Shown: positions 21,920-64,000 of the stretch, piece after piece | How the letters are laid out: the number at the start of each line of letters is the position of its first letter | How positions within the stretch are numbered: position 1 is the stretch's first letter | Virus record (IMG/VR): IMGVR_UViG_3300050034_000334 | DNA length: 64,000 bases | DNA from: a virus | Taxonomy: Duplodnaviria; Caudoviricetes | Direction: 5' to 3' (one strand) | Notes under the pieces: generated by a model | What the model was told of the DNA's origin: nothing | Database searches by the model: none | What the model saw: only the letters and a program-made list of their open reading frames with translations | Program-made: the position numbers and the translations under genes

Positions 21920-21924
21920 CCCAC

Positions 21925-21950
21925 GGGGAGGAGCGATCCTCCCCACATTT
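21925..21950 (+). terminator. intrinsic terminator after the sheath gene
   Basis: 8-bp stem GGGGAGGA/TCCTCCCC, GCGA tetraloop, followed by ACATTTTCT. Confidence 0.65.
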
Positions 21951-21969
21951 TCTCGTCTGGTGAAGACAA

Positions 21970-22812: not shown

Positions 22813-22871
22813 TTTCTTCAAGTTTTCTTACTACCGGGCACCAGAGTTAGAAGCACACAGGAGATTGAATC

Positions 22872-23555: not shown

Positions 23556-23640
23556 CCCAGTTTACTGACACAAGTCTGAACTTCGCAGTATTAGAGAGGT
23601 GAGCAGAACATCGTTCACCTTTTCTATTGCGAGGATTCCA

Positions 23641-24567: not shown

Positions 24568-24574
24568 AGGCAAT

Positions 24575-24991: not shown

Positions 24992-25017
24992 CTAAGAGAC
25001 TCTCTATAGGAAGCACA

Positions 25018-26007
25018 ATGACGAAACTGCCTTTTGGACACAAAATCTCGCAGGCTAATCCAACATGGGATGAAGTGTGCCTTGAGATGATTCTGGAGAA
25101 GTACCCGGACTGCGACCAGAAAGCAGTGGAAAACTATCTGAAATTTGTAGCGGATGGAAAACAAGTAAATGGAAAATTAGAAGGTCATCATACCTTGATG
25201 AGAGCTGATTTTCCTCAGTATATAGACACACCTGTTAACATCGTTAAGCTGACAGCACGCAATCACTTTGTAGCTCACTACTTGTTAGCAAAGGCGGTTC
25301 CATCATCTTCCAGTATTCAAATCACTTTTTATCTCATGGCCAACATGAAAAGGGCTATGTATCTAAAATTGCAAGAAGTTTATAAGATGGCAGATGTATA
25401 CGAAGCCTCTAAACTTCACATACCTTCGACAAAGGGGTTCACTCCAGTTTATAACCCAGATACTAAAATGGTTGTACTCATGTCTAAAACAGATCCTGTA
25501 GTGGTTTCAGGACAGTTTAGACATCACACAACAGGAACTACTTCAGTGAGAGACAAGCAGAGGAACTGTTTTCGTGTTCCCAAAGACGACTCTAGGATAA
25601 TTTCCGGAGAATTACAACCAATCAACAAAGGAAGAAAAGTTCGTATGAATACAGTAACGGGAGAAACTGCTTCTATGATTGCTGGAGATGTCAGGCTAGA
25701 AGATCCCAACTGGGTTCATCCCTCTACAGGAAAAGTAGCTGTAGTTGATTCAGAAGGAAATACTTTTTCTGTCTCAAAAAATGATTCTCGTTTTCTTTCA
25801 GGTGAATTACGTGGTGTAATGTCAGCTGCCTCTGAGGATACTAGAAAAAGAATCGGAAATGCTCAGTTAGGTAGACATCCTTCTCTGGAATTGAGAAAAT
25901 TGTGGAGTAAGCGACGTAAAGGACGGGTTGTTTCACAGAAGACAAGAGACAAAATCAGTGCCTCTCATTTTCTTATGCATCAGAAAAGGAGAGAAAATGT
26001 CATTTAA
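25018..26007 (+). mobile_element. free-standing HNH homing endonuclease
   Basis: EGHHTL...FP...NIVKLTARNHFVAH; four ~31-aa repeats; NUMOD3-like tail. Confidence 0.88.
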
Positions 26008-26872
26008 GAAGCAGGCTCAGGCAGTACTAGCCAGCCCACTTGTCAGTCTTAATGATTGGCATAAGATGTATGGAAATAACGCTTTTGGAGTTAAGACTGC
26101 CTCATTGAAGAAAGTTGCGGAGTCATCTCAGTACCTTCTATCTCATTGCACAATTATGGCATCAGTAATGGTAGAGGCAGAACCTTATGACTACCTAATT
26201 AAGCCTGAGACGAGCCATTTGGCTAATAATAATCAGGACGCCTGGAGTAATGAAGTACTCAAAATGAGTCACAAATCTTTCATTGGTGCATTCAATTTTC
26301 TTGAACACTTCCAAAATTCTAAGCATGCCAAGGGACATATTCTAGACGCTGTCCTTCGTAAAGTATCGATTGCTTCTCCGGATATTTGGGTCTACTTTTG
26401 TGATATTTTGGTAGCAACAGATATGAAACATGAATCACTTGTAGGAGATATCCGTTCGGGTAAAACTAAGTATATGTCGATGGGTTGCGTCGCAGATGAA
26501 GTTACATGCTCCTTTTGTGGAACTAGAGTCACTGATGCCAACACCTATTGTCAGCATCTCAATTTTCAGAAAGGCATGTTCATGCCTGATGACGACGGTG
26601 TTCCTCGGATCATAGTGGAATTGTGCGGACGGCCTTCGCTTCCAGGTGGTGGAGTTCATTTTATCGAGGCTTCATGGGTTGAGACCCCTGCCTTTCCTGG
26701 AGCGGAACTTCGTGGGATTATATCTGACGAGAACGGGAACGATACCTGGACAGGACCTAAGACTAAGTTTACATATAGTACCACCGCTGGAATTAAGAAA
26801 GCTGCCTCTAGTCCAAGAGAAGAGTTGTCCAGAGCTTCCATTGCCGATTTTAGACGGAGGTTTGGTTCATGA
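25997..26872 (+). CDS. prohead (capsid maturation) protease
   Basis: Start ATG 25997 after AGGAG; NFLEH (His), MSMG (Ser), CSFC..CQH zinc insert and FIEASWVETPA, as in assemblin/HK97-type proteases; directly upstream of scaffold and capsid genes. Confidence 0.8.
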   Translation: MSFKKQAQAVLASPLVSLNDWHKMYGNNAFGVKTASLKKVAESSQYLLSHCTIMASVMVEAEPYDYLIKPETSHLANNNQDAWSNEVLKMSHKSFIGAFNFLEHFQNSKHAKGHILDAVLRKVSIASPDIWVYFCDILVATDMKHESLVGDIRSGKTKYMSMGCVADEVTCSFCGTRVTDANTYCQHLNFQKGMFMPDDDGVPRIIVELCGRPSLPGGGVHFIEASWVETPAFPGAELRGIISDENGNDTWTGPKTKFTYSTTAGIKKAASSPREELSRASIADFRRRFGS

Positions 26873-26942
26873 AGATTACCTGTTGGTATAAGAAACGACT
26901 TCAAAACACCCTAGTAGTGAGTGGTTCACTGGAGACTGCGCA

Positions 26943-28976
26943 ATGCGTAAACTTTCTCAACTGAAACAGGCTCTCTTGAAGAAGGAAGCTGATCTTGACA
27001 TGCTTGACGACCAGATCATGTCTCTGCCGACTTCTTCAGTCAAGTTTGACTCCCTTGCCCAGAAGCGTGAGGACATGGAAACCGATATCCGTCAGCTTCG
27101 AGAGGGCATCGAGGTTCTCAATGCTTGGGACACTCTCAAGGGCGGCGATTGGTCAGATGAGATGAAACAGTCTCTCGGCGAAATCGATCCGTTGGTCGTG
27201 GAAATGGCGACCGGCGAGGCTGATGAAGGAATGGGCATGGATGATTTGGGTATGGGTGCTCCTCCCATGACCGACTTCGCACCTGAAGCTCCTCTGCCTC
27301 CTCCTGCACCAGCTGTTGAACCTCCTCCCCTGGAAGAGCCTGTAGCACCTCCGCCTGTTGAAGAAAACACCATGGATGAAATTCCTTCCGGTGATGAACT
27401 TGCCGGCGAAGAGCCACCGGCGGAAGAGCCACCTGTCGAGGAAGAACCTCCTGCTGAAGAGGCACCGATTACGGCATCAAGCAAGAAATCCAACTTCCCG
27501 ACTCCAAGTAAGAAAGGCACTCCGGTGCCTACCGCTCAGAAGAAAGGCAACACAACCATGGCGACTGCGACCGAAACCACGAAGTCTTCTTCTCTTAAGG
27601 ATAGAATCGCTGCTATCAAATCAAAGAGAGCAGAAGCGATCAATAAGGAAGCACAGACTAGAGTCGCTTCCGCTTGGACTGTTGCTAAGACTCTTTTGCC
27701 CACAGCCCCTGCAACCATTCAACAGAAGCTAGCAGAATCTCTTCTGGCGAATACCACCAAGGCTCTCAAGGCCATCTGCCGGCAGACAGCGAGAAATGCT
27801 GCTTTCCAGAAGACCTGCGAGGCGATCGCGTCGGTCACCAAGACCACGATGAATGACCTCATGGAGAACCCAAGCATTCTTGCCAGTGAAGAGAGTGCTG
27901 TGAAGTCTGAATTGAAGGGTGATCCCAAGAGTGCCACCACGAAGAAGGCTGACGACCGCAAGGACGCTGGCCCGGTGCCTCCTGCTTATCCCGAACCCAT
28001 CCGCAAGGAACCTGCTGAGATCGATGCCGGCAAGGCTGGCGATCGTGAAAAGGACACCGTCGACAAGACCATGAGCGACCAGAAGGTCACGCCCAAGGAA
28101 GCAGCCAAGACCAAGAAGGCCTGCTCTGCCTGTGGCAAGGATCACCTGGAAGGCGAATGCTCGATGGCGCCAACAGCGTCCAAGAAGACCAAGAAGGCCG
28201 GTCCTGAGGACATGGCTCCCCCGGCTGCAGGCCCCACGGCTCCTCCAGTTGAAGAAGGCGGCGACATGCCTCTACCTCCTCTGCCGGAAGAGGGTGAAGG
28301 CGAAGAGAAGCCTGAAGGTGAGTCCGAGGAAGTGGTTGGCGACGAAGAGAAGCTCGAAGTTGTTGAGCAGATCGACGAAGTCATCCAGGACATCGAACAG
28401 ATCAAGGATGACATCGAGGAGAATTCCGAAGAGCTCAACCTTGAAAGCATCTTCGACAACGACAAGCTCGAGGACAAGGAAGCATCTCTCGCCAACAATG
28501 GCAACGTCACTGCCGGCGAAGACGACAATGACTTCCTACCCAGTTCAGCCCAGAACATGGAAGCCAGCATGGAAGAGTCTCCCATCGGTGACATGTTCGA
28601 CCTGACTGCCTCCGATGCTGACCCGATGGCTCGTCTCTTGGGCAGCACCAAGTATGCCGAAGTGGACGCGTCTCTGTCCAAGGTCGTGAAGCCTGGGGAT
28701 ATCGCTCAGACCTTCAAGACTGATGCCGTTGGCAAGGATCCTCGTGATAACGAAACCGATCACGAAGATTCTCTGCTGACTGACATCCTCAAGAGTCTCG
28801 ACCAGGACGACTACGACACCACTCGTGACCAGACTTCGCACCAGGAAGAGCCCACCGAGGCCAACACCAAGGTCGGCACCAAGAAGTCCATCACCAAACT
28901 GAAGACTGTGGTTGCGGCGGCTCCTGCTGCGGAATCCAATCTGGCGTCTCTGCTGTTCAGCGACGACGACATGTAA
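26943..28976 (+). CDS. scaffold/internal head protein
   Basis: 677 aa; very acidic, Pro-rich and coiled-coil; between protease and capsid genes; many K-x-A motifs. Confidence 0.65.
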   Translation: MRKLSQLKQALLKKEADLDMLDDQIMSLPTSSVKFDSLAQKREDMETDIRQLREGIEVLNAWDTLKGGDWSDEMKQSLGEIDPLVVEMATGEADEGMGMDDLGMGAPPMTDFAPEAPLPPPAPAVEPPPLEEPVAPPPVEENTMDEIPSGDELAGEEPPAEEPPVEEEPPAEEAPITASSKKSNFPTPSKKGTPVPTAQKKGNTTMATATETTKSSSLKDRIAAIKSKRAEAINKEAQTRVASAWTVAKTLLPTAPATIQQKLAESLLANTTKALKAICRQTARNAAFQKTCEAIASVTKTTMNDLMENPSILASEESAVKSELKGDPKSATTKKADDRKDAGPVPPAYPEPIRKEPAEIDAGKAGDREKDTVDKTMSDQKVTPKEAAKTKKACSACGKDHLEGECSMAPTASKKTKKAGPEDMAPPAAGPTAPPVEEGGDMPLPPLPEEGEGEEKPEGESEEVVGDEEKLEVVEQIDEVIQDIEQIKDDIEENSEELNLESIFDNDKLEDKEASLANNGNVTAGEDDNDFLPSSAQNMEASMEESPIGDMFDLTASDADPMARLLGSTKYAEVDASLSKVVKPGDIAQTFKTDAVGKDPRDNETDHEDSLLTDILKSLDQDDYDTTRDQTSHQEEPTEANTKVGTKKSITKLKTVVAAAPAAESNLASLLFSDDDM

Positions 28977-29002
28977 ACCCAGTAAAACCAGTTACATCAC
29001 AG

Positions 29003-29035
29003 GGTCGGCTCAGATTAACCTCTGAGCCGATTCTA
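29003..29035. terminator. hairpin between convergent scaffold and endonuclease genes
   Basis: Perfect 10-bp stem TCGGCTCAGA (29005-29014)/TCTGAGCCGA (29021-29030), 6-nt loop. Confidence 0.65.
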
Positions 29036-29659
29036 TTTGAAGTGAAGACAGTATCTTCTATGTCCTCCATAAACTCCCTTGGTGACTTGAATGAACTTCG
29101 CTCCACATTTAGGACAGGTGTAATCATGCAATTTAGTATTCTCAGTTAAATTCACTCTTGTAGCAACGGAAGATTGAGACTGTTTTCTGGGGATATTCCA
29201 ACTGTTAGATATTTTGTCCTTGTGATCCTTGGTTTTTGGTACTCCAGTAAGTTTATCAGATAATGCCTTGGCTGCTTTTCGATGAATTTCTTTAGTTCCT
29301 TCAGGATCGTCAATCCACTGCTGTTTCTTGAATTGACTCAGCTTTCTTTTGGTCTCTTCGTTGGCTCGACATCCGTGACCACCGAGAGTGAGATTGTACC
29401 CGATCTTGGGATCAGATGAACGAAGAAGAATGATCCAGAGAGTTTCAAATTCGTTCAACTTGTCTATACTGGAGGTTTCACAAAGAAGTTCCATAGTGAA
29501 ACTTGACTCTCCATATTTTCTCATTGCTTTGTACAAATAGGAATTATCTCCATATTTAGCATTTTTGACATGCTGATTCCATCGTTCTCTCAGTGAAAGA
29601 ACAGTTTGGCCAACATAGAATTTTCCGTTAACGAGATTGGTGATTAAGTAGACGCACAT
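29033..29659 (-). mobile_element. free-standing GIY-YIG homing endonuclease (antisense in the head operon)
   Basis: CVYLITNLVNGKFYVGQT...ERW...FETLWI...GYNLT; strand checked by hand. Confidence 0.9.
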
Positions 29660-29835
29660 GATTACTATGGCCTAAGTAGTCGATTGATACGGGCATTATC
29701 GCTAATTGCCTAAAAAACTGGATTACAACCCCCATAAGTGTAGGATGGCTGCTGGTCATCTATAGATCTTGTCTTAGCTTGACTGATCTGGATGGCTGAC
29801 AAATCAAAACCAGACTATGTAGCTGAGATTCAACC

Positions 29836-30318
29836 ATGTTGAAACTTGACTATTACGGTCAGAACGATGGAACCACGGTTCCAAACGTCACCCTCACAGG
29901 TGACCCCGGTACTGACCAGCTCACGTTGACCAATGCAGGTTACTTGGGCGGAAAGATCATGGCGGTCGTAGGCACTTACTCCGACGGCTCTGCTCTTATC
30001 GCTCCCTGCGATGGCAACACCATGTCGCCCTATGGGACACTCATCAATGGCCCCGGTGAATTTGCCGGCGCTATCGGTCCCTCTGGCTCCAAGAAGGCCC
30101 CTGTCGTCCGCTCCATGTGGAAGGGTTCGGTCGACAATCAGGCTTATGACACAACCAAGCAGTACGTGGTCGGCACTCCGCTGTACGCGGGTACTGGCGG
30201 CGCGGCTGGACTCTACACCAATGCAACACCTGGTGGAGTTGCCAAGATCGTTGGACTTGTCACAGCAGTCCCAACTCAGCAGAACTCTTTCCTGCTGGGC
30301 GTCGGATCACTGATCTAA
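29836..30318 (+). CDS. capsid decoration/cement protein
   Basis: 160 aa, Gly/Thr-rich beta protein directly upstream of the major capsid gene; highly biased codons. Confidence 0.6.
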   Translation: MLKLDYYGQNDGTTVPNVTLTGDPGTDQLTLTNAGYLGGKIMAVVGTYSDGSALIAPCDGNTMSPYGTLINGPGEFAGAIGPSGSKKAPVVRSMWKGSVDNQAYDTTKQYVVGTPLYAGTGGAAGLYTNATPGGVAKIVGLVTAVPTQQNSFLLGVGSLI

Positions 30319-30358
30319 CCCAACGCTGCTCTTAAAGAGAGAAATCGGAGAAATTCAA

Positions 30359-31492
30359 ATGGCTACTCTTTCGAGAACTCAGCAGCAGACAGCGCAGTTG
30401 GGTCAGTTGCTGAAAACCGCAGGCGGACGTCAGAAGCTCGCAGCTTCTCTCGGACCCTCCCTGAGACGCCGCCGTGACTATATGTCGATTGCCCGCAAGG
30501 CACTCATGGTGGAAACCCTTCCGGATGGCGCACTTCCCATCTACGACAAGGAATTTGACGCGACTGGTAAGTCGTTCGTCGAGGCCTTTGTGGTTGGTGA
30601 AGAAGGCGGCGACATTGTCCGGGTAACCAAGCCCATTCGTGTGACGGTTCCGACGTTCGAAATCGTTGCCAATCCCATGATCCCGATCACCCAGATCAAG
30701 GAACGTCGCTTCGACCTCGTTGCCCGTTCTCTCAATCTGGCCAAGGCAGAAGTGGGCGCGACTGAGGACGGCTATGTGTTTGGCCTGTTCGACGCCGTCG
30801 CAACCGCAGCCACAGCGGCGACCCTCGTTGCCGGCACTGGCTCGACGGACTACGTTTTCAACGAAGACCTCAACATCTTCGTGGCGACGTCCGGCATCAC
30901 CACTCCTCCCGTTGCTTGGGTCAGCGGCGGACCCTTTGCTGTTGGTGCTTACACGACGGGTTCCGATGGAAACCTCTATGTTTGCATCAAGGCAGCAACC
31001 ACACAGAACCCGGTAGTGGGCGGCGGCGGTTATGCAGCTGGCTACTGGCTGTTTGTCGGCACCGACACCTTCGCTGTCAAGGGAATTGACGTGGACTCGA
31101 TGGCTGATGCATTTGGCCAGGTTCAGCGCCATGACCTTTCGGTGGCCTATGTGTTCTTCAACCCGCGCGACTATGTCGACCTGTTGAAGTGGACCGATGC
31201 GAACATCGACCGTGAGACGCAGCGCAAGCTGTTGAAGACGGGCGTGATGGGATACCTCTGGGGCGCCACTCTGCTCCAGTCTCGTAAGATCAACTATGGT
31301 GAAGTGTACGTTCTGGCCGATGCCGAGTTCTTGGGCGTCATCCCCGAGCGTATTCCGCTCACGGTCATGTCAGCCGACCGTCCGGACCTCCGCCAGATCG
31401 GCTTCAGCATCTTCGAGAATTTGGGCTTCCTTGTTTTCAACCCGAGCGGAGTCCAGCGCATCAACGTAGTACGTGGCACCGGCAACGTTTAA
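30359..31492 (+). CDS. major capsid protein (HK97 fold, Bxz1-like) with an inserted CBM5/12-like module
   Basis: LGPSLRRRRDY...ETLPDGALPIYD, VPTFEIVANP and ADAEFLGVIP...IFENLGFLVFNPSG match my recall of Bxz1-type capsid proteins; follows protease, scaffold and decoration genes. Confidence 0.88.
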   Translation: MATLSRTQQQTAQLGQLLKTAGGRQKLAASLGPSLRRRRDYMSIARKALMVETLPDGALPIYDKEFDATGKSFVEAFVVGEEGGDIVRVTKPIRVTVPTFEIVANPMIPITQIKERRFDLVARSLNLAKAEVGATEDGYVFGLFDAVATAATAATLVAGTGSTDYVFNEDLNIFVATSGITTPPVAWVSGGPFAVGAYTTGSDGNLYVCIKAATTQNPVVGGGGYAAGYWLFVGTDTFAVKGIDVDSMADAFGQVQRHDLSVAYVFFNPRDYVDLLKWTDANIDRETQRKLLKTGVMGYLWGATLLQSRKINYGEVYVLADAEFLGVIPERIPLTVMSADRPDLRQIGFSIFENLGFLVFNPSGVQRINVVRGTGNV

Positions 31493-31507
31493 CCATCACC
31501 TAACCAT

Positions 31508-31545
31508 CTAGAGCCTCTCTTAATCGGGAGGCTCTAGCTGTCTTC
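31508..31545 (+). terminator. intrinsic terminator after the major capsid gene
   Basis: 10-bp stem CTAGAGCCTC/GAGGCTCTAG (plus 2 inner pairs), followed by CTGTCTT. Confidence 0.6.
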
Positions 31546-31593
31546 AGAACAATAATTTCCCCTAATTGGCAAAACCTATAGTATCATGAATTC

Positions 31594-32727
31594 ATGAACA
31601 GCGTTATCAAACAAAGCCTCACTTCCATTCCTCACGATCCTGTCTGGGTCGACACCTACCTAGAATTCATTACCAACACTCCTACTCCCACAGAATCCTT
31701 CGACAAGCACCACATCCTGATGGAGAGCATCTTCCCTGACTTCCGCAGTCTCACCAAATTCCCCTGGAACATCAAGCGGCTTTCTTATGCTGATCATCTC
31801 ATCGCTCACTATCTACTTCGCAAGGCCATTCCTTGTGGAGCAACCAACGGAGCATTCCGCCTCATGGTGGGCCTCAGATTCGGCGAGCTACGTGCCAGCG
31901 GTTACGATCTTGAACTTCTTTCCGACATCGCAGCAGAATTTGAACTCATCCGTCGCATGAACGATTTTTCCATCAAGGGTTACATCAGAATCTATCGCGA
32001 AGACGACGTCACTGTCTGCAAACCTAGCCAACTCTCTAACTATGAAGCTGAAGGTTGGAGCTTAGTCTACCCCGAACAACAGTGGATTTACAAAGATGAC
32101 GAAGAACGTCGTGTTCTGAAAACTGATCTTCCTCCTCTCCTCCTCGATGGTTGGGAATGCGGAAGATGCTATCGTGCTACTGATTCCACTAAACAGAAAC
32201 TTTCCGATTGGAGTTTAGCCAAGCATAAACAAAGAACTGCAGAACCTAATGGTTATTCCTTCATACCTAAAGGAGATCAGCACCATCGTAGAGTCCTAGG
32301 CATTTCGGAAGAAACCAAGCAAAAGATCCGTGAAACTCTCATGGGGCGTACTCTAGCACCAGAGCATGCCGATAAGGTTCGTGTTGCTACAATTGGCAAA
32401 TCCTGGACCTGGTCCTTGGAATCCAGAGCAGCCAAGTCCCAATCCATGACAGGAGAGGGCAACAATCGCTTTGGCAAGCCTGGTTACTGGAAAGACAAGA
32501 CCAGACCTCAGTCAACTCGTGACAAAATGTCCGCTTCTCAATCCGCTCGCACTGATAATGCCTTCTGGAAAGGTAAGGTCGGTCCACACAAAGACCATCT
32601 TCAATCTCAGAAATCTCGTGACCAGATAGCTCTCAAACTCACAGGTAGAATAGCTTCTGAAGAAACTCGTCGTAAGATGCGTGAGGCCCACGCTCTAAGA
32701 AAGAAACTATCAAATCCAGTAAAGTGA
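31594..32727 (+). mobile_element. free-standing HNH homing endonuclease with NUMOD3-like repeats
   Basis: DKHHIL...FP...NIKRLSYADHLIAH; ISEETKQKIR, QSTRDKMS and SEETRRKMR repeats. Confidence 0.88.
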
Positions 32728-32759
32728 GCAGTATTACTATCTCGAGGAGCACAAAATCA

Positions 32760-33302
32760 ATGGCTCAGAAATCCTACTTGGCAAAGAGACAGATCTACTT
32801 TTCAATTGGAGCAACTTATGTTCGCCCTGGTGACATCCTAACCTACGAAGAGAGTGTGTCAAGAATGACCATCTTCCGTGGTGGAGTCCTGGTCGGCTCA
32901 GTTCGTCAGACAGCGACCGGAATCAAGAGTCTCCTAGCACAGAAAGTTCCTCTGATCGAAGAGATCAAGCCAACTCCGGTTGCTCCGGTTGTGGTGAAGG
33001 AAGAGCCCAAGGTTGATCCCGCTGTGCCAGAAAGATACATTGGCCACGAGGCAGAGTACTTGGCGGACACACAACGGGCACAGACCATGGACCCAGTGGT
33101 TGTTCCTGTTCCTGTAGAGAAGCCGATTGTCCTGGCTGATCTGACCAAGGCCAAGATTGCGGCTCATGCCAAGACCTTTGGTCTGGAAATTGATCCGGAG
33201 GCTTACACTAAGATTGATCTGATTGCTCGTGTGGAAAAGCACAAGGAGTCACTCAACAATCTGCCGACTATCGCCGATGATACGAGCCAAACCGACTCTT
33301 GA
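32760..33302 (+). CDS. hypothetical virion protein with a C-terminal HeH/Rho-N-like domain
   Basis: ATG 32760 after GAGGAG; C-terminal LADLTKAKIAAHAKTFGLEI...TKIDLIARV. Confidence 0.55.
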   Translation: MAQKSYLAKRQIYFSIGATYVRPGDILTYEESVSRMTIFRGGVLVGSVRQTATGIKSLLAQKVPLIEEIKPTPVAPVVVKEEPKVDPAVPERYIGHEAEYLADTQRAQTMDPVVVPVPVEKPIVLADLTKAKIAAHAKTFGLEIDPEAYTKIDLIARVEKHKESLNNLPTIADDTSQTDS

Positions 33303-33328
33303 GTTCTTAAGAGAGGGCATTGTGCTCG

Positions 33329-36187
33329 ATGGCAACTGTTGACACCAACCTTGATTCCGCCATATTCACTGGCAACTCTCAGTTTGTTTTCAGTGGATCC
33401 AATCTGTATGTGGTAGGAAACACCACAACGACTGGAAGTCTGGATGTATTCCTTTCAACAGATTACGGATACACCTTTACAAACGTCGGTTCTGTGACCG
33501 TTGCTGGAGATACAACCAAGGGATTTGATCCTGCTGTGTGCCTTGACTCCGGCGGGATTCTTCGCATCGTTGGAACTATCTATGGCTCAGGTGGTTCCAC
33601 CTCCCTAGGGATCTACTTCTTCAACATCAGCACACACACGTTTGCCAGCAACTCTCCATTCATAATTGTAGCGGGATCTCAGATTGGCCGCGACTACGAT
33701 GTCGCGATGCTGCCTGACTTGACGGTGATGGTCGTGTCCTCCTTGCTGAATCAGGGAGGTTTCTACGGAGAGACTGTGATGGCCTATTTCCTAAGTGCCA
33801 GCACTTCTTCTCCTGCAGTTTTGAGTTCGCATGAACTCACTTCAAGTCCATTCAGATCTGGAAACACTTTCGGAACTGTCTCGACTTTGGCAAATGCAAC
33901 TGGAGTGGAAGTCTATCTAGGATCTCACAACAAGGTTTTCACCTTCACTCCGTTCCCAGCATCCATCACTCTTTACAAATACACCCAGAGCACCACAACC
34001 TGGGCAACCAGCACCTTGACTACCATAATGTGTCAGTACATCGATGATAGAATGACCATCATTGGCGATGGCACAAAGCGGTATCTGAGTCAGTGTTTCT
34101 TCACTCAGACCAGGTACAGTCTTGTTGGAAATGCCCTGCTGGGATACAGCGCGGATTCAGGAGCCACTTGGTCATGGGAATCCTATCTTGGAACAGGACT
34201 GCAATCAATCACTGATCCTGTGATCAGTGTCGCGCCTGAAGGATTGCGTTTTTCTTATGTGGAGAAGAACTTCACTTCCACCAACACTGGCAATGTGATG
34301 AACGGAACGCTCCGTGTCAAGCTCCTGGGTGTCGCTCCTTGGTCCATCACGATTGATCCGACTTTCTACAATGTCATCACCACTTCACGTCTGAGAGGAA
34401 CCAAGGACAAACTTCTTGCAGGAATGCTCTATGCCCTGATGGGAGAAACCACCTCTGGAGATGGTCAATTCTACACAGGATACAGCGTTCCACCAGTAGC
34501 TGCCATCGCTACTTCTACGATTTCTCTTCCAAGAGGAAGCACTCTAGTTTTGGACGCATCTGCAAGCTACGATCTAAACGGAAGCCCTCTACGTTTCACC
34601 TGGTCCACCGACAACGCGGTTGTACATGTAACCCCGATTCCTGACATTACTGGAGCAGCGAATACAGCCGCCATCTTCACTCCAACGAATACAGCTGCTC
34701 CTCTTCAAACAGCCCATGTGAGCGTGGTTGTAGAAGATCTCGATTTGAATGGCAATCCTATCCATCCCTGGGATCCAGTTCATCACACACCTGCAAGTGA
34801 ATTGGCAACATGTACGGTCACGATTCCTCTTCTTCTGGCCCCGGTTATCGGATATCTGTCACCGTTCAATGTCTCTAGAGGAACAATTGTAAGGATCGCT
34901 CCAACAATCACTGACGATGCTGTTGGAGTGACTCTCAGCTATGCTTGGACTCAGGTGTCTGGCACCACGATTGCTCTGAGTGACACAGATTTTCCATTCC
35001 TGAATGTTCTAACTCAGGCGGCTCTGCTAACAGGTGAAAGCCTGGTGTTCTCTCTATCTGTAAGTGATGGAATCAATCTTCCAGTTTTCAGAAATTTCAC
35101 CATCAATGTCGCTGCTCATGCTTTTGCTGAGCCGGATACTTTCATCAGTAGAGGAGTCTGGAGCGGCAACATCGCCCAGCGTAACACAGCTGGTTCCTAC
35201 CTCTCTGATGAGAGTTGCCTTGCATCTTCTCTGAACAATTACAAGAAGTACACCATGATTGATGGCACTGAAAGAACTCTGGTTGTCACGCCAACAGACA
35301 TCATGGTGTTTAACTACAGCGGTGCCACTGATACCACTCCACAGCAGGTGATTCTTCGCAGATTCTTTCCTCCTGGATTTCTGACAGTAGTTGACGGTGT
35401 TCAAACTGAAGACGACTACACGATCATGTTGGCAAGTGACGGGAATCTCTACAAGTACACCACAGCCCCGGCCATCAACACTGACAACTATGATTCCATA
35501 ATCTACTTGCCTTCTTTGACCTCCATGACCTTTAACAAGTTGCTGTGCACCTACAATTTCAACAACACTCGAGTTCTGGCACTCAGTGGACCTCAAGGAT
35601 GCTACCTGCTCCAGATCGACAATGCCTACTTTACCACGACCATTGGCATGGCAATTTCTCCTTCATCCAAGCTCCTGTTTGGAGGATCGAATGTAGTCTG
35701 GATTCGCACCAACAACGTAGAGTCAACCATTCAGGGGAAGGTTCTGCTTGGAACTGTCCAAAATGGCAACACCTACGAAACTCTGATCGATTTGAGCAAG
35801 AGAATTATCCTTGGAACATGGGAATCGGCCAATTTGAGCAACGCGATCGTAGACTCAGGGGAAATTCTTTTCAATGCAGAGTCGAGCTACATGGGATTCC
35901 CATCTCCTCCAGTTCTGGTTTCTGCGTTGGTTGGAACCATTTCGCATTTTATCGCTCCTGTGTGGATCACCTGGACACAGAATCGCCCAGACCTGATTTC
36001 ACTGTACAACCTCTTTACCTCGAATGATGGAGGAACTTCTTGGAGTGAAGCTCTCACAGTGACCAACGGCAACCAGTTGTCTGCTATTCTCCCAATGACT
36101 CAGGGTTACACCTACCAGCTTCGAATGCGAGCAATTAACACTGATGGAGTGAGTGGATGGTCAAATGTACTGTCCGTGTCCATCTAG
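33329..36187 (+). CDS. large virion surface protein: Asp-box beta-propeller, PKD/Ig-like domains, FN3
   Basis: Asp-boxes STDYGYTF, SADSGATW, SNDGGTSW; LDASASYD...FTWS and YAWTQVSG (PKD-like); YQLRMRAINTDG.SGWSN (FN3). Confidence 0.65.
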   Translation: MATVDTNLDSAIFTGNSQFVFSGSNLYVVGNTTTTGSLDVFLSTDYGYTFTNVGSVTVAGDTTKGFDPAVCLDSGGILRIVGTIYGSGGSTSLGIYFFNISTHTFASNSPFIIVAGSQIGRDYDVAMLPDLTVMVVSSLLNQGGFYGETVMAYFLSASTSSPAVLSSHELTSSPFRSGNTFGTVSTLANATGVEVYLGSHNKVFTFTPFPASITLYKYTQSTTTWATSTLTTIMCQYIDDRMTIIGDGTKRYLSQCFFTQTRYSLVGNALLGYSADSGATWSWESYLGTGLQSITDPVISVAPEGLRFSYVEKNFTSTNTGNVMNGTLRVKLLGVAPWSITIDPTFYNVITTSRLRGTKDKLLAGMLYALMGETTSGDGQFYTGYSVPPVAAIATSTISLPRGSTLVLDASASYDLNGSPLRFTWSTDNAVVHVTPIPDITGAANTAAIFTPTNTAAPLQTAHVSVVVEDLDLNGNPIHPWDPVHHTPASELATCTVTIPLLLAPVIGYLSPFNVSRGTIVRIAPTITDDAVGVTLSYAWTQVSGTTIALSDTDFPFLNVLTQAALLTGESLVFSLSVSDGINLPVFRNFTINVAAHAFAEPDTFISRGVWSGNIAQRNTAGSYLSDESCLASSLNNYKKYTMIDGTERTLVVTPTDIMVFNYSGATDTTPQQVILRRFFPPGFLTVVDGVQTEDDYTIMLASDGNLYKYTTAPAINTDNYDSIIYLPSLTSMTFNKLLCTYNFNNTRVLALSGPQGCYLLQIDNAYFTTTIGMAISPSSKLLFGGSNVVWIRTNNVESTIQGKVLLGTVQNGNTYETLIDLSKRIILGTWESANLSNAIVDSGEILFNAESSYMGFPSPPVLVSALVGTISHFIAPVWITWTQNRPDLISLYNLFTSNDGGTSWSEALTVTNGNQLSAILPMTQGYTYQLRMRAINTDGVSGWSNVLSVSI

Positions 36188-36201: not shown

Positions 36202-37200
36202 ATGGGATTGCTAAACAAGAGCGAGCTTCTCAAAACCCTGCGCGCAATTATGGGTTTCGATGTGAATGCTTCGCCCTTCGCGGCCTTGGAACTGAAATCC
36301 GATGAACCCTGTTTCTATCGCAGTAGCCACACCGGCTTCATTCAATCCAAGAACTACGGATCTGGAAATCACACCCACATACTTCTTTCTCACCTGAGAG
36401 ACTCTCTGCAGGTTCTCAAGGATGAAGCTGTTGAGCTTTCCTTGGACGGATCTGGGGTGTTGAAACTCTCGAGCACAGACAACGTCTACGAATCCGAGAT
36501 TCGAGTTCACACAGTTCGTCCTGAACAGGCTGGACTGAAGACTCACAACATTGGCGACATCGTTCATCGGCTTCCTGCTCACGTATTCCAGGACTTTGAT
36601 GCCAGACCGTTCATCTGTGCTGCCCAGCCAACTCTGATTGACGGAAGAATCATGATGCCTACTCAGTCAGGAATTGTCGTATGGCAGGGTCCACAAGATC
36701 TCATTCCTCTCTCGCTGTATCCAAGAGAGACCATGCTCAAGTTCATTTCGAGCTCTCAGAATTTGGAGAAGGTTGTGGTCTCTTCCAAAGGATACTGGGG
36801 TGCGGTGGCTGGAGGTCTGATCTCGTTTATTTCTGGACACACTACCGGAGACACCCTCTACAAGAGTTACAACGTCTCTGGAAAGCCTTTGGACACGTTG
36901 CCGGCTGAACGTCTAATTGTGTCACTCGAAGCGGCGGCTGGTATGTGTGGAGACAACAAGATCGAGATCGACCCGTTGCTGGGTGTTGTAACCCGAGACA
37001 CCACTGGGAACCAAAGCAGATTTGCCTTCGGTAGCCATCAGGGTTGGAGCAAGTTCGCGATCACTGGAAGAACGGCCAAGGTCATTGCTGACGCCTTGCG
37101 TCAGTCATCGGACACAGACACTGCTCTGGTCTATGTTCCCACCAATCAGTCTATGCGACTGGTTCGAGGTAATTGGCAAGTGAACTTCCGAACCTTCTGA
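36202..37200 (+). CDS. DNA polymerase III beta-clamp-like processivity factor
   Basis: 332 aa; N-terminus LNKSELLKTLRAI..SPF and LRDSLQVLKDEAVELSLD..LKLSS loosely follow DnaN; a DnaX gene is present in the window. Confidence 0.5.
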   Translation: MGLLNKSELLKTLRAIMGFDVNASPFAALELKSDEPCFYRSSHTGFIQSKNYGSGNHTHILLSHLRDSLQVLKDEAVELSLDGSGVLKLSSTDNVYESEIRVHTVRPEQAGLKTHNIGDIVHRLPAHVFQDFDARPFICAAQPTLIDGRIMMPTQSGIVVWQGPQDLIPLSLYPRETMLKFISSSQNLEKVVVSSKGYWGAVAGGLISFISGHTTGDTLYKSYNVSGKPLDTLPAERLIVSLEAAAGMCGDNKIEIDPLLGVVTRDTTGNQSRFAFGSHQGWSKFAITGRTAKVIADALRQSSDTDTALVYVPTNQSMRLVRGNWQVNFRTF

Positions 37201-40223: not shown

Positions 40224-41048
40224 ATGAAAGGGTACTACGTGTACATGTATCTTCGATCTAAGTCTTCTCCTAACGGAGAAATTGGAACTCCGTACTATGT
40301 TGGAAAAGGGAATGGAAGTAGAATTCAGGAGTTTCATGGAAGGCACATCGCAGTCCCAAAATCTTCAGAAAATAGACGGACGGTTTCTGAAGGGCTTAAC
40401 GAAGCTGATGCTTTTCAACTCGAGATGCTCCTCATTCATCAGTATGGTAGGATAGATCTTGGAACTGGATGCCTTCACAACCTTACCGATGGAGGAGAAG
40501 GTGCGAGAAGGTCACTTAGGAAACCTCAATCAGAGGCGTTAAAGGCTCGTAAGAGTGTGATCATGAAGGAGTGGTACTTAAAGCATGGTGTTTCAAAGGA
40601 AAGACGAGATAAGATTCGTACAACTTTAACCAGGTACTACCAGCATAATACCAATCCTCGTGCTGGATCAGTAACGTCTGAAGAACAGAAGACGAAAGTA
40701 AGTCAGGCTATGAAACAGGTATGGTCCGTTCAAGAACATCCAATGAAGGGGAAACCTAGGAGTGAATCTACTAAACAAGCCATGAGTGTGGGTATGAAAG
40801 AGTACTATAAAAATGGAGGAATACCTCCAGGATTAGGAGTTAGTCCAAGTGTACTTACACGCGAGAAAATAAGTCAAAAGTTAACAGGAGTTAAGCATTC
40901 TGAAGAAAGACGTAGACGTCGAAGTGAACAAATGAAATCTATGTGGGCCAAAAGAAAGGCAGAAAAGAATGACGGGAATCGAATGGTACCAGTCTTGGTG
41001 GCAGGACGTTCCGTTGCTTATCTCCGAGACCAATGTCATCTATCGTAA
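40224..41048 (+). mobile_element. free-standing GIY-YIG-like endonuclease (YYVY..PYYVGKG subtype) with NUMOD3-like repeats
   Basis: YYVYMYLR...PYYVGKGNGSR...EADAFQLEMLLI..YGR...LHNLTDGGEG; several SEExK repeats. Confidence 0.85.
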
Positions 41049-41772
41049 GCAGATTGCTAAGGGTCTGTCAGACAAGGTTACAGCAACCAAGAAGAAGATC
41101 ATCTCCGAGCGTGGATGGGAGCCTTGCGCTCATCTGATTGAGAAGAATTTTAGTCAAACTCTTGAGGAACTGCATTTCTTCTATGTACCCAGGGGATGGT
41201 TGCCTGGGCCATGTTTTATCTTTCCTCAACGAGATCTGACGGGTGCCTTCACCCGAGCGCAGACAAGGCCCTTGTACAAAGTGGTCTACAACACAGAAGA
41301 GGGTGAGAGCACAGCCAAATACTGCGTTGCCGGTTGCAAGAAGGATGACTTCAACGGACCAATCTGGCTGGGCAATGATCCACGAACTTTACAGATGATC
41401 GTGGAATTGGGATGGGTTATCATTGTAGAAGGACCCTTCGATCTCTTGGCCTGTCGTCTTCTGTGTCCAGATACTCCTTTCCTTTGTTCCATGACCAAAA
41501 ACATCGGCGAGAGACATGAAGACTACCTTCGCATGATGGGCGTCACCAAGATATTTCTGATGTATGACAACGAAGCTCCCAAAGCAGGCAAGGATGTGGG
41601 AGCCGGAAACCTATCGATGTGGAGGATTCAGAATCACATCAAGTGGTGCCAGGTAGACGTTATCCTCTCCCCAGCGGAAGATGCTTCGGCTTGCCTTAAG
41701 AACCCTGTTAAGGCTAGACTTCTCAAATCTCGAATTCTTTCAGCAGTTCCGGTATCAGTCACTCATGAATGA
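40969..41772 (+). CDS. DnaG-like primase catalytic core (TOPRIM), no zinc-binding domain
   Basis: FIFPQRDLTG...QTR...KY, then IIVEGPFDLLA and FLMYDNE. Confidence 0.7.
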   Translation: MTGIEWYQSWWQDVPLLISETNVIYRKQIAKGLSDKVTATKKKIISERGWEPCAHLIEKNFSQTLEELHFFYVPRGWLPGPCFIFPQRDLTGAFTRAQTRPLYKVVYNTEEGESTAKYCVAGCKKDDFNGPIWLGNDPRTLQMIVELGWVIIVEGPFDLLACRLLCPDTPFLCSMTKNIGERHEDYLRMMGVTKIFLMYDNEAPKAGKDVGAGNLSMWRIQNHIKWCQVDVILSPAEDASACLKNPVKARLLKSRILSAVPVSVTHE

Positions 41773-41992
41773 GTGGCAATTCTTTGAGGAAATGGACAGG
41801 GAAGACATGTTGTTAGCTGTTCCAGGCATCATACCGGGTCGTCCTCGATTCGGATATCCCAGTACGGAACCATGCTGGGTTTGTGGCAGGCACAATAACA
41901 ACCAGGCCGAACCTCGATTCCTCTATGTGGTCTGTGAAGATCACCAGAATGTTCCACCAACAGAGATAAACCGGAGATTCAGACCAGAGTGA
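41765..41992 (+). CDS. small zinc-finger-like protein
   Basis: ATG 41765 overlaps the primase end; CWVC...CEDH. Confidence 0.55.
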   Translation: MNEWQFFEEMDREDMLLAVPGIIPGRPRFGYPSTEPCWVCGRHNNNQAEPRFLYVVCEDHQNVPPTEINRRFRPE

Positions 41993-53772: not shown

Positions 53773-54495
53773 ATGCTCACAAAACTCCTGAACAAGTCAT
53801 CTGCAGTGAGGCCCCGGTCAGTGCTTCGTAGCACAGATCGGAATTACATGCGCCTCTTGAACGACGGTGCTCACTTCACGCGTGAGACCAGGAAGTCCAA
53901 TGGGAGCCAGCAACTTCGCTGTGTACTTTCTGATGGAGATACTAGAGTTCTCACTTCAGCAGTCTTTTATGACATGCTGGAGCGCGGCCTGATCGAGATT
54001 GGCAACACTGAAATGGGAGATAATCAAGCCACAGACTTCTTCACCATCAGTGGAAAAGGCAAGAAGATCCTTGAGGGTGAGGATCCATACGCTCCTGTGC
54101 TTCCTGAAGATGAGCCTGAGCAGACGTCAGAGATGCCTGATGAGATAGTGCCTCCGGCCCCGGAATCTCCTCTGATTCCAGCAACTGCAGGTCTGAAAGT
54201 CAATCTCTGGAAGAAAATTGCCGAGAACAGACCCAAGCTCAAAGATCTGAAAGTCATCTCTCAGGATGGTCGCTACATCGATCCTTCGGTTCCTAACAGC
54301 AACCTTGAGGTCTACACAGCATTCGTGAAGTGGAGCGATGATGGAGATGACAAGATGGCTGATGAAGAGATTGACGTCCTGGCAAAGAGCGAACTTCACG
54401 CTGAAGAGATCGCTGCTGCAGCCATGAGACAGGATTACGAGCCTGGTGGCAGGATCATCGGTATCAGACAGAGGATTCGCGGAACTTATTATTGA
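53773..54495 (+). CDS. hypothetical protein (winged-helix-like N-terminal part)
   Basis: AAGGA SD; FYDMLERGLIE...FTISGKGKKIL resembles a wHTH wing; acidic linker. Confidence 0.55.
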   Translation: MLTKLLNKSSAVRPRSVLRSTDRNYMRLLNDGAHFTRETRKSNGSQQLRCVLSDGDTRVLTSAVFYDMLERGLIEIGNTEMGDNQATDFFTISGKGKKILEGEDPYAPVLPEDEPEQTSEMPDEIVPPAPESPLIPATAGLKVNLWKKIAENRPKLKDLKVISQDGRYIDPSVPNSNLEVYTAFVKWSDDGDDKMADEEIDVLAKSELHAEEIAAAAMRQDYEPGGRIIGIRQRIRGTYY

Positions 54496-60814: not shown

Positions 60815-60888
60815 GATCCTAGGCAGAACCTGCCTTCGGTTCTATTTCATGATACTCGCAAAATCCGCTTTCCAAAAGGAGATTGCCT

Positions 60889-61661: not shown

Positions 61662-62174
61662 ATGAAGGTCTGTGTTTTCAACACCACGAACAACCTCATT
61701 CAGCCGGTCGATATTGCGTCGAGTGGTCTCACTCTGGCCAATGTGGATGTAACTTCCTCTGTTGGAAATTTCACAGTGGCTCATGGTCTCATTCAAACCC
61801 CGTCAGCAGTTGTGCTTCAGATGACTTCTAGCGGAGATATTTGGTTTCAAGATACTCCATTCGATGCCACTTATCTCTATCTGGACGCTGCGGTTGCTGG
61901 TCTAACAGCGATCGCTGCTTGTTTCCTTGGTGGAGGATTACTAACAACCTCCGTTCTTCCATTCACTCAACTTCCAGCAGTAATCGCAGTTCCAGACGGG
62001 GGAACTTCCTACCTGCTACCCACCATTCCAGGCTATCCTGCTGCTTCGTTCTACTTCGTCAACGGCATCAAGAGGCAATATGGTGTTTACTACACCATCA
62101 CTGAGGGTTTGCTCACGATATTGGCCCCATACCCACCAGAAGCGGGAGACTCACATGAAATCTACTACACCTAG
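61662..62174 (+). CDS. virion/fibre-associated two-domain beta protein
   Basis: FTVAHGLIQTPSAV domain plus a FVNG..Q....YTI...P..GD..EIYY Ig-like unit. Confidence 0.55.
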   Translation: MKVCVFNTTNNLIQPVDIASSGLTLANVDVTSSVGNFTVAHGLIQTPSAVVLQMTSSGDIWFQDTPFDATYLYLDAAVAGLTAIAACFLGGGLLTTSVLPFTQLPAVIAVPDGGTSYLLPTIPGYPAASFYFVNGIKRQYGVYYTITEGLLTILAPYPPEAGDSHEIYYT

Positions 62175-64000
62175 GATTTTCTTCATCTTTGCGTGCTTCC
62201 TGGCTTTGCTTGGGGTCAATGCCTCGGCGCAGACTGTCAATCCAAAGACAGATATTCGTTGGCCAGCATCATGCACTGGTACTGCGATCTACTACAACAT
62301 CGTCACAGGACTTTGCACAATTCCTCCTTCTGGTATCACCTCTATCTCAATTGCCACATCCAATGGCTTTCAGGGTTCATCGAGCGGTGGACTGAATCCA
62401 ACTCTGACCCTGAGTGTTGATTCAACTCACGTGTTGCCAGTGAATACAGGTCTAGCAACGACCTATCTTAATGGGGCAGGCACTTACACAACGCCACCAG
62501 GAGGTGGAGGCACAGTAAATTCGATCTCAGTCGCCACATCCAACGGTTTTCAGGGATCGTCAAGTGGAGGACCAACTCCAATACTGACCTTGAGTTTGGA
62601 TTCTACCCACGTCCTACCAGTGAATACAAACCTGGCAACGACCTTCCTCAATGGTGCAGGTTTCTATACAACACCTCCAGGCACTCCGTTACCTGCTACC
62701 GTGATGCAGACGAATCAGAATGAAACCTTCGGCACCTATCAATTCAATCTCGCCAATTCAACCTTGTTGACCCTACCACCAACTGTTACAGTGGCCGGCA
62801 AGGTCATCAATCAGCCAACCAGTTCAGGAACTTATGCACTGACAAGTCAACTGACAACACCACCGATCGTGATCAATGGTATTGATGACTCTCTTTCAGG
62901 ATGGAAGGGAGTTTGCGCTTACACAGCGACTGCCATCGGTACTTGGACCGGAATCACGAACACGATCACTGTCAGCAGCGTGGCTGGAACCATCGTAGGA
63001 GGTGGGTCTCAGGCGGTATGGGATGGCGGACACAGTGCTGTCAGTGCTGCAGTAGTCAGCATCGTCGGTAGCACTGTTGTTCTGACCACCAACACCCTCT
63101 CTTCGCAGCCTGGAGGAATTCAGTTGTATTTTGGCTGCAATCCTGGTGGTGACAATGTTCCAGGAGCTACTGCTCAGACTGTTGGTAACCCGACACCGTC
63201 TATAGATGGTGCCTCCATGCTGGTCTCGTTGACCACACTTCCTGTATCCACCCAGACCAACGCTCTGTGGGTATACGAAGCTGGAGCTTGCGACTCTTGC
63301 ACCAATGTAACCTCAGATTTTGAGATCTACATCAACAATGGAGCGGCTGCTGACAACATGGAGTTTGATTCGTTCATCTTTGACCATACGGATCTGCTTG
63401 ACTTCATGTGGGGCACACAGTGTAACCAGACGCTCGGAGTTTGGCAATATGCCAACAACAGCAGTCCCTGGCAGTCCACGACCGCTGCTTGCAACCTGAC
63501 CTCTGGAACATGGCATCACATTATTGAAACCTTCCACCGCGTTCCAGGAGACACAAGTTGCGGAGGAATGCCCTGCGAGTATTGGGATGACATTACGGTT
63601 GATGGAGTTGTGAACCACATCAATGCAACCTACACAGCAACAAATCTTTACACCAACTGGGCATCAGGATCTGGATTGCAGTTCCAGATCGATATCCCAG
63701 CATCAACAGGAACTGCAATCACTGTTTCTGAGAATCTTGATCAAATCCTCTTTCAGGAATCTCCCACTGCAGGCTACTGTCAGATCGCTGGCTGCACGAT
63801 GTCTGGACCGTTCCTTGTTCCGACCATCAATGGCCTGAGCGTGACCAACATTGGTATCGGAGCCGGATCTGTGAACCTTGGTGGTTCTCTGACCGCCTTC
63901 TCATCTGGCACTGGCAACTTGGCAGTCGGACCTGGAGTTCTCAATTCAAACACCACCGGCAGCAACAACGTGGGTGTTGGCCAGGGTGCTCTGTATGTCA
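62155..64000 (+). CDS. signal-peptide-bearing fibre/lectin-like protein (3' partial, not in track)
   Basis: Translated by hand: open from ATG 62155 to the window end (>615 aa). MKSTTPR-IFFIFACFLALLGV-NASA/Q Sec signal; tandem 60-aa repeat; Cys-rich ConA-like domain; GNLAVG..VL.SNTTGSNNVGVG repeat. Confidence 0.8.
   Translation, partial: MKSTTPRIFFIFACFLALLGVNASAQTVNPKTDIRWPASCTGTAIYYNIVTGLCTIPPSGITSISIATSNGFQGSSSGGLNPTLTLSVDSTHVLPVNTGLATTYLNGAGTYTTPPGGGGTVNSISVATSNGFQGSSSGGPTPILTLSLDSTHVLPVNTNLATTFLNGAGFYTTPPGTPLPATVMQTNQNETFGTYQFNLANSTLLTLPPTVTVAGKVINQPTSSGTYALTSQLTTPPIVINGIDDSLSGWKGVCAYTATAIGTWTGITNTITVSSVAGTIVGGGSQAVWDGGHSAVSAAVVSIVGSTVVLTTNTLSSQPGGIQLYFGCNPGGDNVPGATAQTVGNPTPSIDGASMLVSLTTLPVSTQTNALWVYEAGACDSCTNVTSDFEIYINNGAAADNMEFDSFIFDHTDLLDFMWGTQCNQTLGVWQYANNSSPWQSTTAACNLTSGTWHHIIETFHRVPGDTSCGGMPCEYWDDITVDGVVNHINATYTATNLYTNWASGSGLQFQIDIPASTGTAITVSENLDQILFQESPTAGYCQIAGCTMSGPFLVPTINGLSVTNIGIGAGSVNLGGSLTAFSSGTGNLAVGPGVLNSNTTGSNNVGVGQGALYV
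62335..62682 (+). repeat. two-copy intragenic tandem repeat, period 180 bp
   Basis: 62335-62502 and 62515-62682 both encode SISxATSNGFQGSSSGG..P.LTLS.DSTHVLPVNT.LATT.LNGAG.YTTPPG. Confidence 0.9.

Follow-up and report, generated by a model that had tools for sequence, protein, structure and literature searches.

Introduction

Why would a tailed phage carry an export signal on a protein that is built like a tail fibre? The question is raised by a gene at the end of a 64,000-nucleotide stretch of DNA, referred to here as the window, from the IMG/VR virus record IMGVR_UViG_3300050034_000334 (Duplodnaviria; Caudoviricetes). The record holds 187,058 bp and is about 60% complete by estimate; the window lies on its minus strand. 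An earlier note, made from the letters of the window, described a fibre-like protein with a Sec signal peptide and a Cys-rich lectin-like domain, and considered both a phage role and capture of a secreted bacterial adhesin.

We refer to this gene as the fibre gene and to the gene directly upstream, a putative adaptor of 170 amino acids (aa), as X. Judging by sequence and predicted structure, the fibre protein is likely a substrate of the Sec pathway and of signal peptidase I (SPI) that folds with disulfides outside the cytoplasm into a trimeric, glycan-binding fibre. At about even odds, the gene represents the distal, sugar-binding half of a two-gene tail-fibre module.

Results

Gene and signal peptide

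The fibre gene runs from ATG 62155 to a stop at 64830 (window coordinates) and encodes 891 aa (protein P0002). Its final 830 nucleotides (nt) lie outside the window, which holds 62155..64000 (+); in the whole record the gene occupies G000:C1:78478-81153 on the minus strand. The frame that the earlier note saw open from 62155 to the window end therefore continues to a regular stop. The start that it placed upstream of the hydrophobic segment is also borne out: ATG 62155 is preceded, at 5 nt, by the Shine-Dalgarno sequence GGGAGA (62144-62149) and agrees with the starts of all full-length homologues. An in-frame ATG further upstream, at 62080, was rejected, as it lies inside the preceding gene and the homologues give it no support.

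The first 25 residues (62155..62229 (+)) form a predicted signal peptide, called from explicit rules for its three regions, conservation in the homologue alignment and a genome census. The n-region, MKSTTPR, has a charge of +2, the h-region comprises 14 residues, IFFIFACFLALLGV, and the c-region, NASA, places Ala at -3 and -1. SPI is predicted to cut after ASA, leaving Gln26 as the mature N-terminus, with Gln at +1. The most hydrophobic 19-residue stretch of the whole protein falls on this segment. Cys14 stands in the middle of the hydrophobic core and is missing from homologues, so it is not a lipobox Cys. A lipoprotein signal and a twin-arginine translocation (Tat) signal were both rejected, since there is no lipobox and the signal peptide has a single Arg, with no twin-Arg pair.

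The same three-part anatomy recurs in 8/8 aligned homologues, with Gln at +1 invariant in all eight. A signal peptide followed by Gln is present in every full-length homologue of the lectin domain, namely P0004, P0006, P0007, P0009, P0131 and P0256 together with seven IMG/VR loci; the genomic contexts of P0131 and P0256 are too short for use. The signal-peptide region varies among homologues in sequence and in length (16-27 aa), while the residues past the cut are conserved, which argues for a generic targeting signal rather than a specific binding helix. Anatomy, retention in every full-length homologue and the census agree with the textbook signal peptide of the earlier note, which looks genuine.

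N-terminal domain, repeats and cysteines

The mature protein begins with a small N-terminal domain (aa 26-58; 62230..62328 (+)) that carries the motif Q-x-V-N-P-x-T-D-I-R-W-P and a Cys40-Cys54 loop. Across the eight sequences of alignment A4, Q26, I34, W36, G42 and C54 are invariant. This domain is followed by two tandem 60-aa repeats (aa 59-178; 62329..62688 (+)), a duplication already described in the earlier note. Self-comparison of DNA and protein recovers a 161-nt unit twice at a spacing of 180 nt, with 76% DNA identity and 46/60 residues identical. Other phage fibre proteins, some with a signal peptide and some lacking one, contain one to three copies of the repeat unit.

The protein contains 19 Cys, one in the signal peptide and 18 in the mature chain. 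The latter fall into near pairs at 40/54, 254/328, 379/382, 423/446, 469/474, 542/547, 737/744, 757/781 and 801/824. Combined with the eight Cys conserved in the lectin domain, this pairing fits oxidative folding outside the cytoplasm. The proposal of export for disulfide-bonded folding thus gains support from the sequence in three respects, the signal peptide, the Cys pairing and the conserved lectin Cys.

Lectin domain

Residues 236-548 (62860..63798 (+)) form a predicted Cys-rich jelly roll of the ConA-like lectin/glucanase type, assigned from alignment A1, an AF2 model, Foldseek and VIA-align. Alignment A1, which sets this region against nine homologues, holds the eight conserved Cys; between the first two of them lies a 69-aa insert (aa 257-325, nt 62923-63129) unique to this protein. 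The core of the AF2 model has a pLDDT of 75-90. With a probability of 1.00 and E values of 3e-6 to 1e-4, Foldseek pairs it with legume lectins, GH16, lyases for alginate, glucuronan and ulvan (PL7/14/20/36) and the carbohydrate-binding module of a sialidase, and VIA-align places it at Z ~12 in the ConA-like superfamily, including carbohydrate-binding modules of phage receptor-binding proteins.

Several details of the earlier note can be located on this model. The beta-rich domain that it saw at ~63160-63760 is the confident core, and the lectin-like, GH16/ConA-type fold that it suspected agrees with the predicted jelly roll. Its NMEFD motif lies at aa 401 (nt 63355), and exactly 10 Cys codons, the number it gave, occur between 62900 and 63800. 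The GH16 catalytic motif E-x-D-x(x)-E is absent: the conserved strand reads E-F-D-S-F-I-F-D, without the second Glu, and Pfam gives no match. The invariant E and D of the 'EFD' strand presumably recall the 'EFDTF' loop of legume lectins; there is no sequence-profile match to solved chains. The lectin domain is predicted to be sugar-binding, and either binding or cutting would be compatible with the model.

Searches of the whole fibre protein against Pfam (E up to 1) and NCBIfam gave no family match, and sequence and profile searches of the PDB gave chance matches only. Among GenBank phages, no relative of the lectin domain or of X was found, and the beta-roll gave weak matches only. When the lectin and X domains were scanned against 185,579 prokaryote species (one genome each), no relative of either was found. 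All close relatives are on viral contigs. A homologue of 279 aa consists of a signal peptide and the lectin domain and nothing else.

Beta-roll head and C-terminus

The NTTG/N-x-A-V-G repeats that the earlier note glimpsed begin near aa 586, extend past the window and have more than 34,000 relatives. They belong to a predicted YadA-like left-handed beta-roll head, a trimeric type, at aa ~586-736 (63910..64000 (+), on to ~64362), identified by PHROG, VIA-align and homotrimer prediction. Matches to PHROGs cover aa 534-736 and are to 'tail spike' or 'virion structural' families only, among them PHROG 4636, 'tail spike', at E 2e-14. VIA-align relates the head to UspA1, EibD, YadA and BoaA with Z 9.0-9.9 and a root-mean-square deviation of 2.2-5.5 over 82-154 residues, clearly above the next class.

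Structure prediction favours a homotrimeric head. Modelled as three copies, aa 560-800 gave an ipSAE of 0.95 against 0.00 for the best control, with a partner pLDDT of 86. Contact agreement between runs was at least 90%, and the contacts recur every 17 residues. In the calibration of this trimer mark, 21/30 proteins solved as same-chain pairs passed, compared with 0/23 solved as single chains. Autotransporter heads are among the solved structures, and the pass may in part reflect likeness to these.

Beyond the head, aa 737-795 form a Cys-knot segment, and a C-terminal domain of 95 aa, Cys-containing and soluble-looking, extends to the stop at 64830. The AF2 monomer of aa 545-891 is poor outside aa 655-735, and the last 150 residues are modelled without confidence. 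Two assignments were rejected. The protein is not a true trimeric autotransporter, as the C-terminal YadA-type beta-barrel anchor is absent (Pfam E up to 1, NCBIfam). It is also not cargo of a type IX secretion system (T9SS), since Pfam and NCBIfam find no C-terminal domain of the PF18962/TIGR type and the host is probably not a member of the Bacteroidota.

The upstream gene, a putative adaptor

Gene X (61662..62174 (+)) is an ORF (open reading frame) of 170 aa without a signal peptide, whose last ~65 residues form a conserved domain. This domain has a weak, below-cut-off match to Pfam DUF4183 (E 0.0086). Its relatives occur in 13 viral loci, and in four viral loci it is 50-60% identical to the window copy (alignment A5). 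Global identities for the unrelated flanks are inflated and were excluded from the evidence.

The two genes meet at a coupling junction (62144..62174 (+)), at which GGGAGA precedes ATG 62155 and the first 20 nt of the fibre gene overlap the end of X. In 12/13 viral loci, a protein with a signal peptide followed by Gln begins exactly 20 nt before the X stop. The junction is constant in these loci, GGAGA..CATGAA, with the Shine-Dalgarno sequence in Gly-Asp codons and the ATG within His-Glu.

Outside this junction, both partners vary. The partners of X measure 298, 302, 408, 589, 900 and 1128 aa; they have the N-domain in common and wholly divergent distal parts, a pattern typical of receptor-binding proteins. 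The N-terminal parts of X likewise differ among loci, being Gp138_N-like central spikes with collagen repeats, fibre-type P-K-L-G-L or NVxWQ-type. In three of the loci examined, X takes this Gp138_N-like spike form with its collagen repeats, and the two genes are placed between the hub and gp25/Baseplate_J genes. Homologues of the lectin domain with a signal peptide and Gln stand after baseplate wedge genes in a myophage and between distal-tail and hub genes in siphophage contigs, and within these baseplate and tail-tip operons they are translationally coupled to tail genes.

The fibre N-domain always adjoins the X C-terminal domain in these phages. As far as sequence can tell, the C-domain of the adaptor, the N-domain of the fibre and the signal peptide between them are inherited as one unit, and aa 26-58 are a candidate docking domain for X. 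Virion-specific parts flank this unit on its adaptor side and receptor-type modules on its fibre side, which is the logic of adaptor-plus-receptor-binding-protein systems.

The earlier note had placed the fibre gene behind fibre-like genes in one operon. This holds loosely, and for the directly upstream 170-aa gene only, through its conserved C-terminal domain; the rest found no support. Scans for sigma-70 promoters and terminators gave scores no better than those of shuffled sequence, and no relatives on viral contigs were found for the 172-aa gene at 60883.

Two further observations concern the anchors and the junction. The anchor types NVxWQ and P-N/K-L-G-L occur both in proteins that lack a signal peptide (L013:5225-5557, L047:7848-8228) and behind signal peptides (P0004/P0006), so their binding target must be reachable by both routes. 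A signal-peptide-like mini-ORF at locus L056 may be either a decayed module or a small hydrophobic peptide.

Cultured relative

The closest cultured relative is Tunturi 5, a phage of Tunturiibacter (Acidobacteriota), to whose tail sheath the sheath encoded here is 46.5% identical. Tunturi 5 (PP885688) is a 309-kb jumbo myophage of Acidobacteriaceae (PMC11924767). Its genes gp325-gp335 are syntenic with window 17949-33014, which holds the sheath, protease and capsid genes. A further block, gp337-gp341 (L066:34535-43633), consists of five consecutive genes that each encode a signal peptide followed by Gln, an arrangement seen in 0 of the other 33 annotated genes of the 44-kb stretch of Tunturi 5. 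Within this block gp337 and gp341 are labelled 'tail fiber protein' and gp338 'virion structural protein', and mature gp337 contains 18 Cys. The Tunturi 5 paper mentions no signal peptides and reports no virion proteomics (PMC11924767).

At the corresponding place in the window (33320-36187) stands a 955-aa protein without a signal peptide. It has Asp-box-like 'S-T-D-Y-G-Y-T-F' motifs resembling those in sialidase or BNR propellers. In the syntenic region, the match of the major-capsid homologue to Tunturi 5 gp334 is split into two blocks (30359-31492 and 31594-32727) by ~70 extra residues. An HNH homing-endonuclease gene directly follows this homologue, and the arrangement may reflect an insertion in the capsid gene.

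Predicted exported proteins and probable host

By a rule-based census, eight proteins encoded in the record carry Gln directly behind a signal peptide, among them the fibre protein and its downstream neighbour. The neighbour (ATG 64844; 64844-66895 in window coordinates, just past the window; L002:13106-15157, minus strand) encodes a GH28 polygalacturonase-like beta-helix of 683 aa with 14 Cys and a signal peptide of its own, cut before Gln, which makes it a candidate for an exported depolymerase of exopolysaccharide. Its best named relatives are acidobacterial. One of them, 56% identical over the full length and likewise with a signal peptide and Gln, lies in a prophage of an Acidobacteria metagenome-assembled genome (MAG). 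The same prophage encodes, directly after a J-like tail protein, a 993-aa spike-like protein with a signal peptide and the post-cleavage motif of the fibre protein.

The last ~20 codons of the GH28 frame, which end in a 'GFEPAT'-type tail, are antisense to tRNA-Arg(UCU) (66831-66906; L002:13095-13170), the first of an opposite-strand tRNA array. The cassette thus borders on this array, and the GH28 C-terminus may be a by-product of insertion.

The six remaining proteins measure 102-432 aa (G000:C1:151347-153052, 53854-54186, 40514-41812, 36690-37079, 26382-26690). They have no Pfam or PHROG family, save for a weak TPM-domain match on the 432-aa protein. Judging by these signals, exported proteins seem to form a whole set in this phage.

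Gln at +1 is a known mark of SPI substrates, the 'Q-rule', in Bacteroidetes (PMC5837995), and cargo genes of Porphyromonas phages are reported to show it as well (PMC10367356). In 400 kb of the Acidobacteria MAG that carries the prophage (G001:C15:1-400000), Gln is the first polar residue after 27/58 signal-peptide-like segments, against 12.5% expected by composition; the count takes such segments with small residues at -1 and -3 and is a crude statistic. The MAG also encodes a glutaminyl cyclase, PF05096 (Glu_cyclase_2), at E 4.8e-98. Given the Gln enrichment and the cyclase, the Gln is in keeping with an acidobacterial host and speaks for actual processing of these N-termini by SPI. The pattern suggests that the rule also holds in Acidobacteriota and their phages. 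A Bacteroidota host, as the Q-rule by itself would imply, was overturned by the relationship to Tunturi 5 and by the homologues in the acidobacterial prophage. The source, an uncultured jumbo myophage of soil, most likely has an acidobacterial host.

Discussion

The earlier note suggested two fates for an exported phage protein, joining virions at lysis or being displayed on the infected cell as an adhesin or receptor blocker. A conserved, translationally coupled adaptor gene combined with variable distal modules favours a role for the fibre protein as a virion receptor-binding protein. Under this proposal, the fibre chain would be exported through Sec and cut by SPI between Ala25 and Gln26. 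In the periplasm, the N-terminal Gln would likely be cyclised, the nine Cys pairs oxidised and the trimer formed. Docking of the trimer through its N-domain on the adaptor C-terminal domain is less certain. In related phages the adaptor is a central baseplate spike or proximal fibre, so the trimer would join virions only at lysis, with the envelope breached. Mounted on the virion, it would act as a glycan-binding receptor-binding protein, and the exported GH28 enzyme would work alongside it. From the logic of the module, we put the probability that the protein is a virion receptor-binding protein, docking on the adaptor when the envelope opens, at roughly 0.45-0.5.

Several points weigh against this proposal. 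Tailed phages assemble their virions in the cytoplasm, and we found no precedent for an exported fibre added at lysis. The contact between X and the fibre protein is deduced from co-inheritance, and X can exist alone, as at locus L056 (L056:3932-4260), where X and the junction are kept with a partner frame of only 21 codons. The fibre cassette lies ~40 kb from the tail sheath gene and adjoins the tRNA array, a position that suits an accessory, non-virion role. The prophage homologue of the GH28 neighbour stands alone between minus-strand genes near an integrase, in a cargo-like position. The 'tail fiber' labels of Tunturi 5 come from structure-based annotation, not proteomics (PMC11924767). 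Finally, the E. coli control for the Gln count (150 kb) gave 3/11 strict cases and is small.

The best-surviving alternative, which we consider somewhat unlikely, is that the protein is exported and never enters the virion, acting in free form, together with the GH28 enzyme, at the envelope or within the periplasm or lysate. The two might bind or cut a uronic-acid-rich host exopolysaccharide to let progeny escape, or might mask receptors against superinfection, as prophage 'moron' proteins do. The evidence from signal peptide and disulfides is identical for this role and for a virion protein. The distance of the cassette from the tail genes and its place beside the tRNA array, the cargo-typical position of the 56% identical GH28 homologue in the Acidobacteria prophage, the 279-aa homologue reduced to signal peptide and lectin domain, and the locus that lost the partner and kept X all agree with it. 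However, a free lectin or blocker would have no use for a conserved N-domain whose gene is joined to that of a spike or fibre protein through a constant 20-nt overlap, or for swapping of distal modules of the receptor-binding type. The homologues that sit inside baseplate and tail-tip operons, coupled to tail genes, also speak for the virion.

An improbable alternative is that the hydrophobic N-terminus stays uncleaved on a protein assembled in the cytoplasm, with the helix plugging into the adaptor C-domain or entering the host membrane at infection. This would square the segment with cytoplasmic virion assembly. Translational coupling could pass the nascent N-terminus straight to freshly made X, and the NVxWQ and P-N/K-L-G-L anchors do exist with and without a signal peptide. 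Yet all three regions of a cleavable signal peptide are present, with small residues at -3 and -1, and the segment drifts in sequence and length while the X domain stays 50-60% identical to the window copy. Gln at +1 is common to unrelated exported proteins of the phage and of the acidobacterial genome. The even, paired Cys, which also number 18 in Tunturi 5 gp337, are ill-suited to a reducing cytoplasm.

A last alternative, close to the captured adhesin of the earlier note, is a bacterial secreted adhesin gene placed on the contig by recent capture or mis-binning and without a phage role. It draws on the tens of thousands of beta-roll relatives, many of them bacterial surface proteins and some named trimeric autotransporter adhesins, and is nevertheless very improbable, because the window shares with Tunturi 5 a syntenic set of phage genes for sheath, protease and capsid, the lectin and X domains lack relatives in the prokaryote genomes scanned and both occur on IMG/VR contigs inside tail modules, the autotransporter anchor is absent, and bacterial chromosomes yielded no near-identical copies outside prophages.

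A broader form of the virion proposal can be offered tentatively. Tailed phages of Acidobacteriota may route fibres and spikes through Sec, with folding, oxidation, trimerisation and pyroglutamate formation in the periplasm and mounting on the adaptor only at lysis.

In the textbook account, assembly of tailed phages is wholly cytoplasmic. A conserved class of fibres or spikes with working export signals, if true, would alter this picture. One possibility is that receptor-binding proteins can mature beyond the cytoplasm and be attached at lysis; the other is that fibre-like lectins and glycosidases are exported for a different purpose by phages of a dominant soil phylum. An extracytoplasmic branch of tail morphogenesis would be undescribed for Caudoviricetes. 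The modules concerned recognise host glycans and thus matter for host-range prediction, while signal peptides on annotated 'tail fibers' are now overlooked. In phage engineering, receptor-binding proteins stabilised by disulfides may be of use in acidic soils. Tunturi 5 and its Tunturiibacter host are both in culture, so the question can be tested directly.

Comparison with known systems

Trimeric autotransporter adhesins such as YadA, UspA1 and EibD share with the fibre protein an N-terminal Sec signal, a beta-roll head and a trimeric state, the last predicted here. The Eib family is carried by lambdoid prophages of E. coli. Unlike these adhesins, the fibre protein lacks a C-terminal beta-barrel anchor, so this route to outer-membrane display is closed to it, and it adds a lectin domain and an N-terminal docking domain of phage type.

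The adaptor-plus-tailspike systems of phages, including the gp37-type adaptors of SP6 and K1-5 and the branched spikes of CBA120 and G7C, are closer in organisation. In both these systems and the present module, a conserved N-terminal docking part meets a tail-anchored adaptor, and the distal modules are exchangeable. The known systems are cytoplasmic, with no signal peptide or disulfide set, whereas the fibre protein has a predicted signal peptide and a set of paired Cys, and its docking is inferred.

A receptor-binding virion protein with a cleavable Sec signal does exist in filamentous phages, whose g3p (pIII) folds with disulfides in the periplasm before joining the particle. The particles of these phages (Inoviridae) are extruded through the envelope. 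In contrast, the phage studied here is tailed and presumably lytic, and its particles are cytoplasmic.

Among tailed phages, host Sec is used by endolysin Lys44 of fOg44, by signal-anchor-release (SAR) endolysins and by T4 RI (PMC6116005). These are lysis proteins or regulators and are neither fibre-like nor virion proteins. A literature search for tail fibres or tailspikes with signal peptides brought up exported endolysins, T4 RI and lysogenic-conversion proteins and nothing else; within that literature, no account of a Sec-exported tail fibre in a tailed phage was found.

The Bacteroidetes Q-rule and the phage cargo of P. gingivalis resemble the fibre protein in that Gln directly follows the SPI site and the phage genes obey the rule of their host. 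They differ in scope, as the host here is apparently acidobacterial, a phylum outside those papers (PMC5837995, PMC10367356), and the P. gingivalis genes are not fibre-like.

The nearest parallel is provided by the fibres of Tunturi 5. They have no detectable similarity to the fibre protein or to X, use another anchor motif and lack the 20-nt coupling. They nevertheless belong to a related jumbo myophage and combine a signal peptide followed by Gln with, in gp337, the same number of 18 mature Cys as the fibre protein described here.

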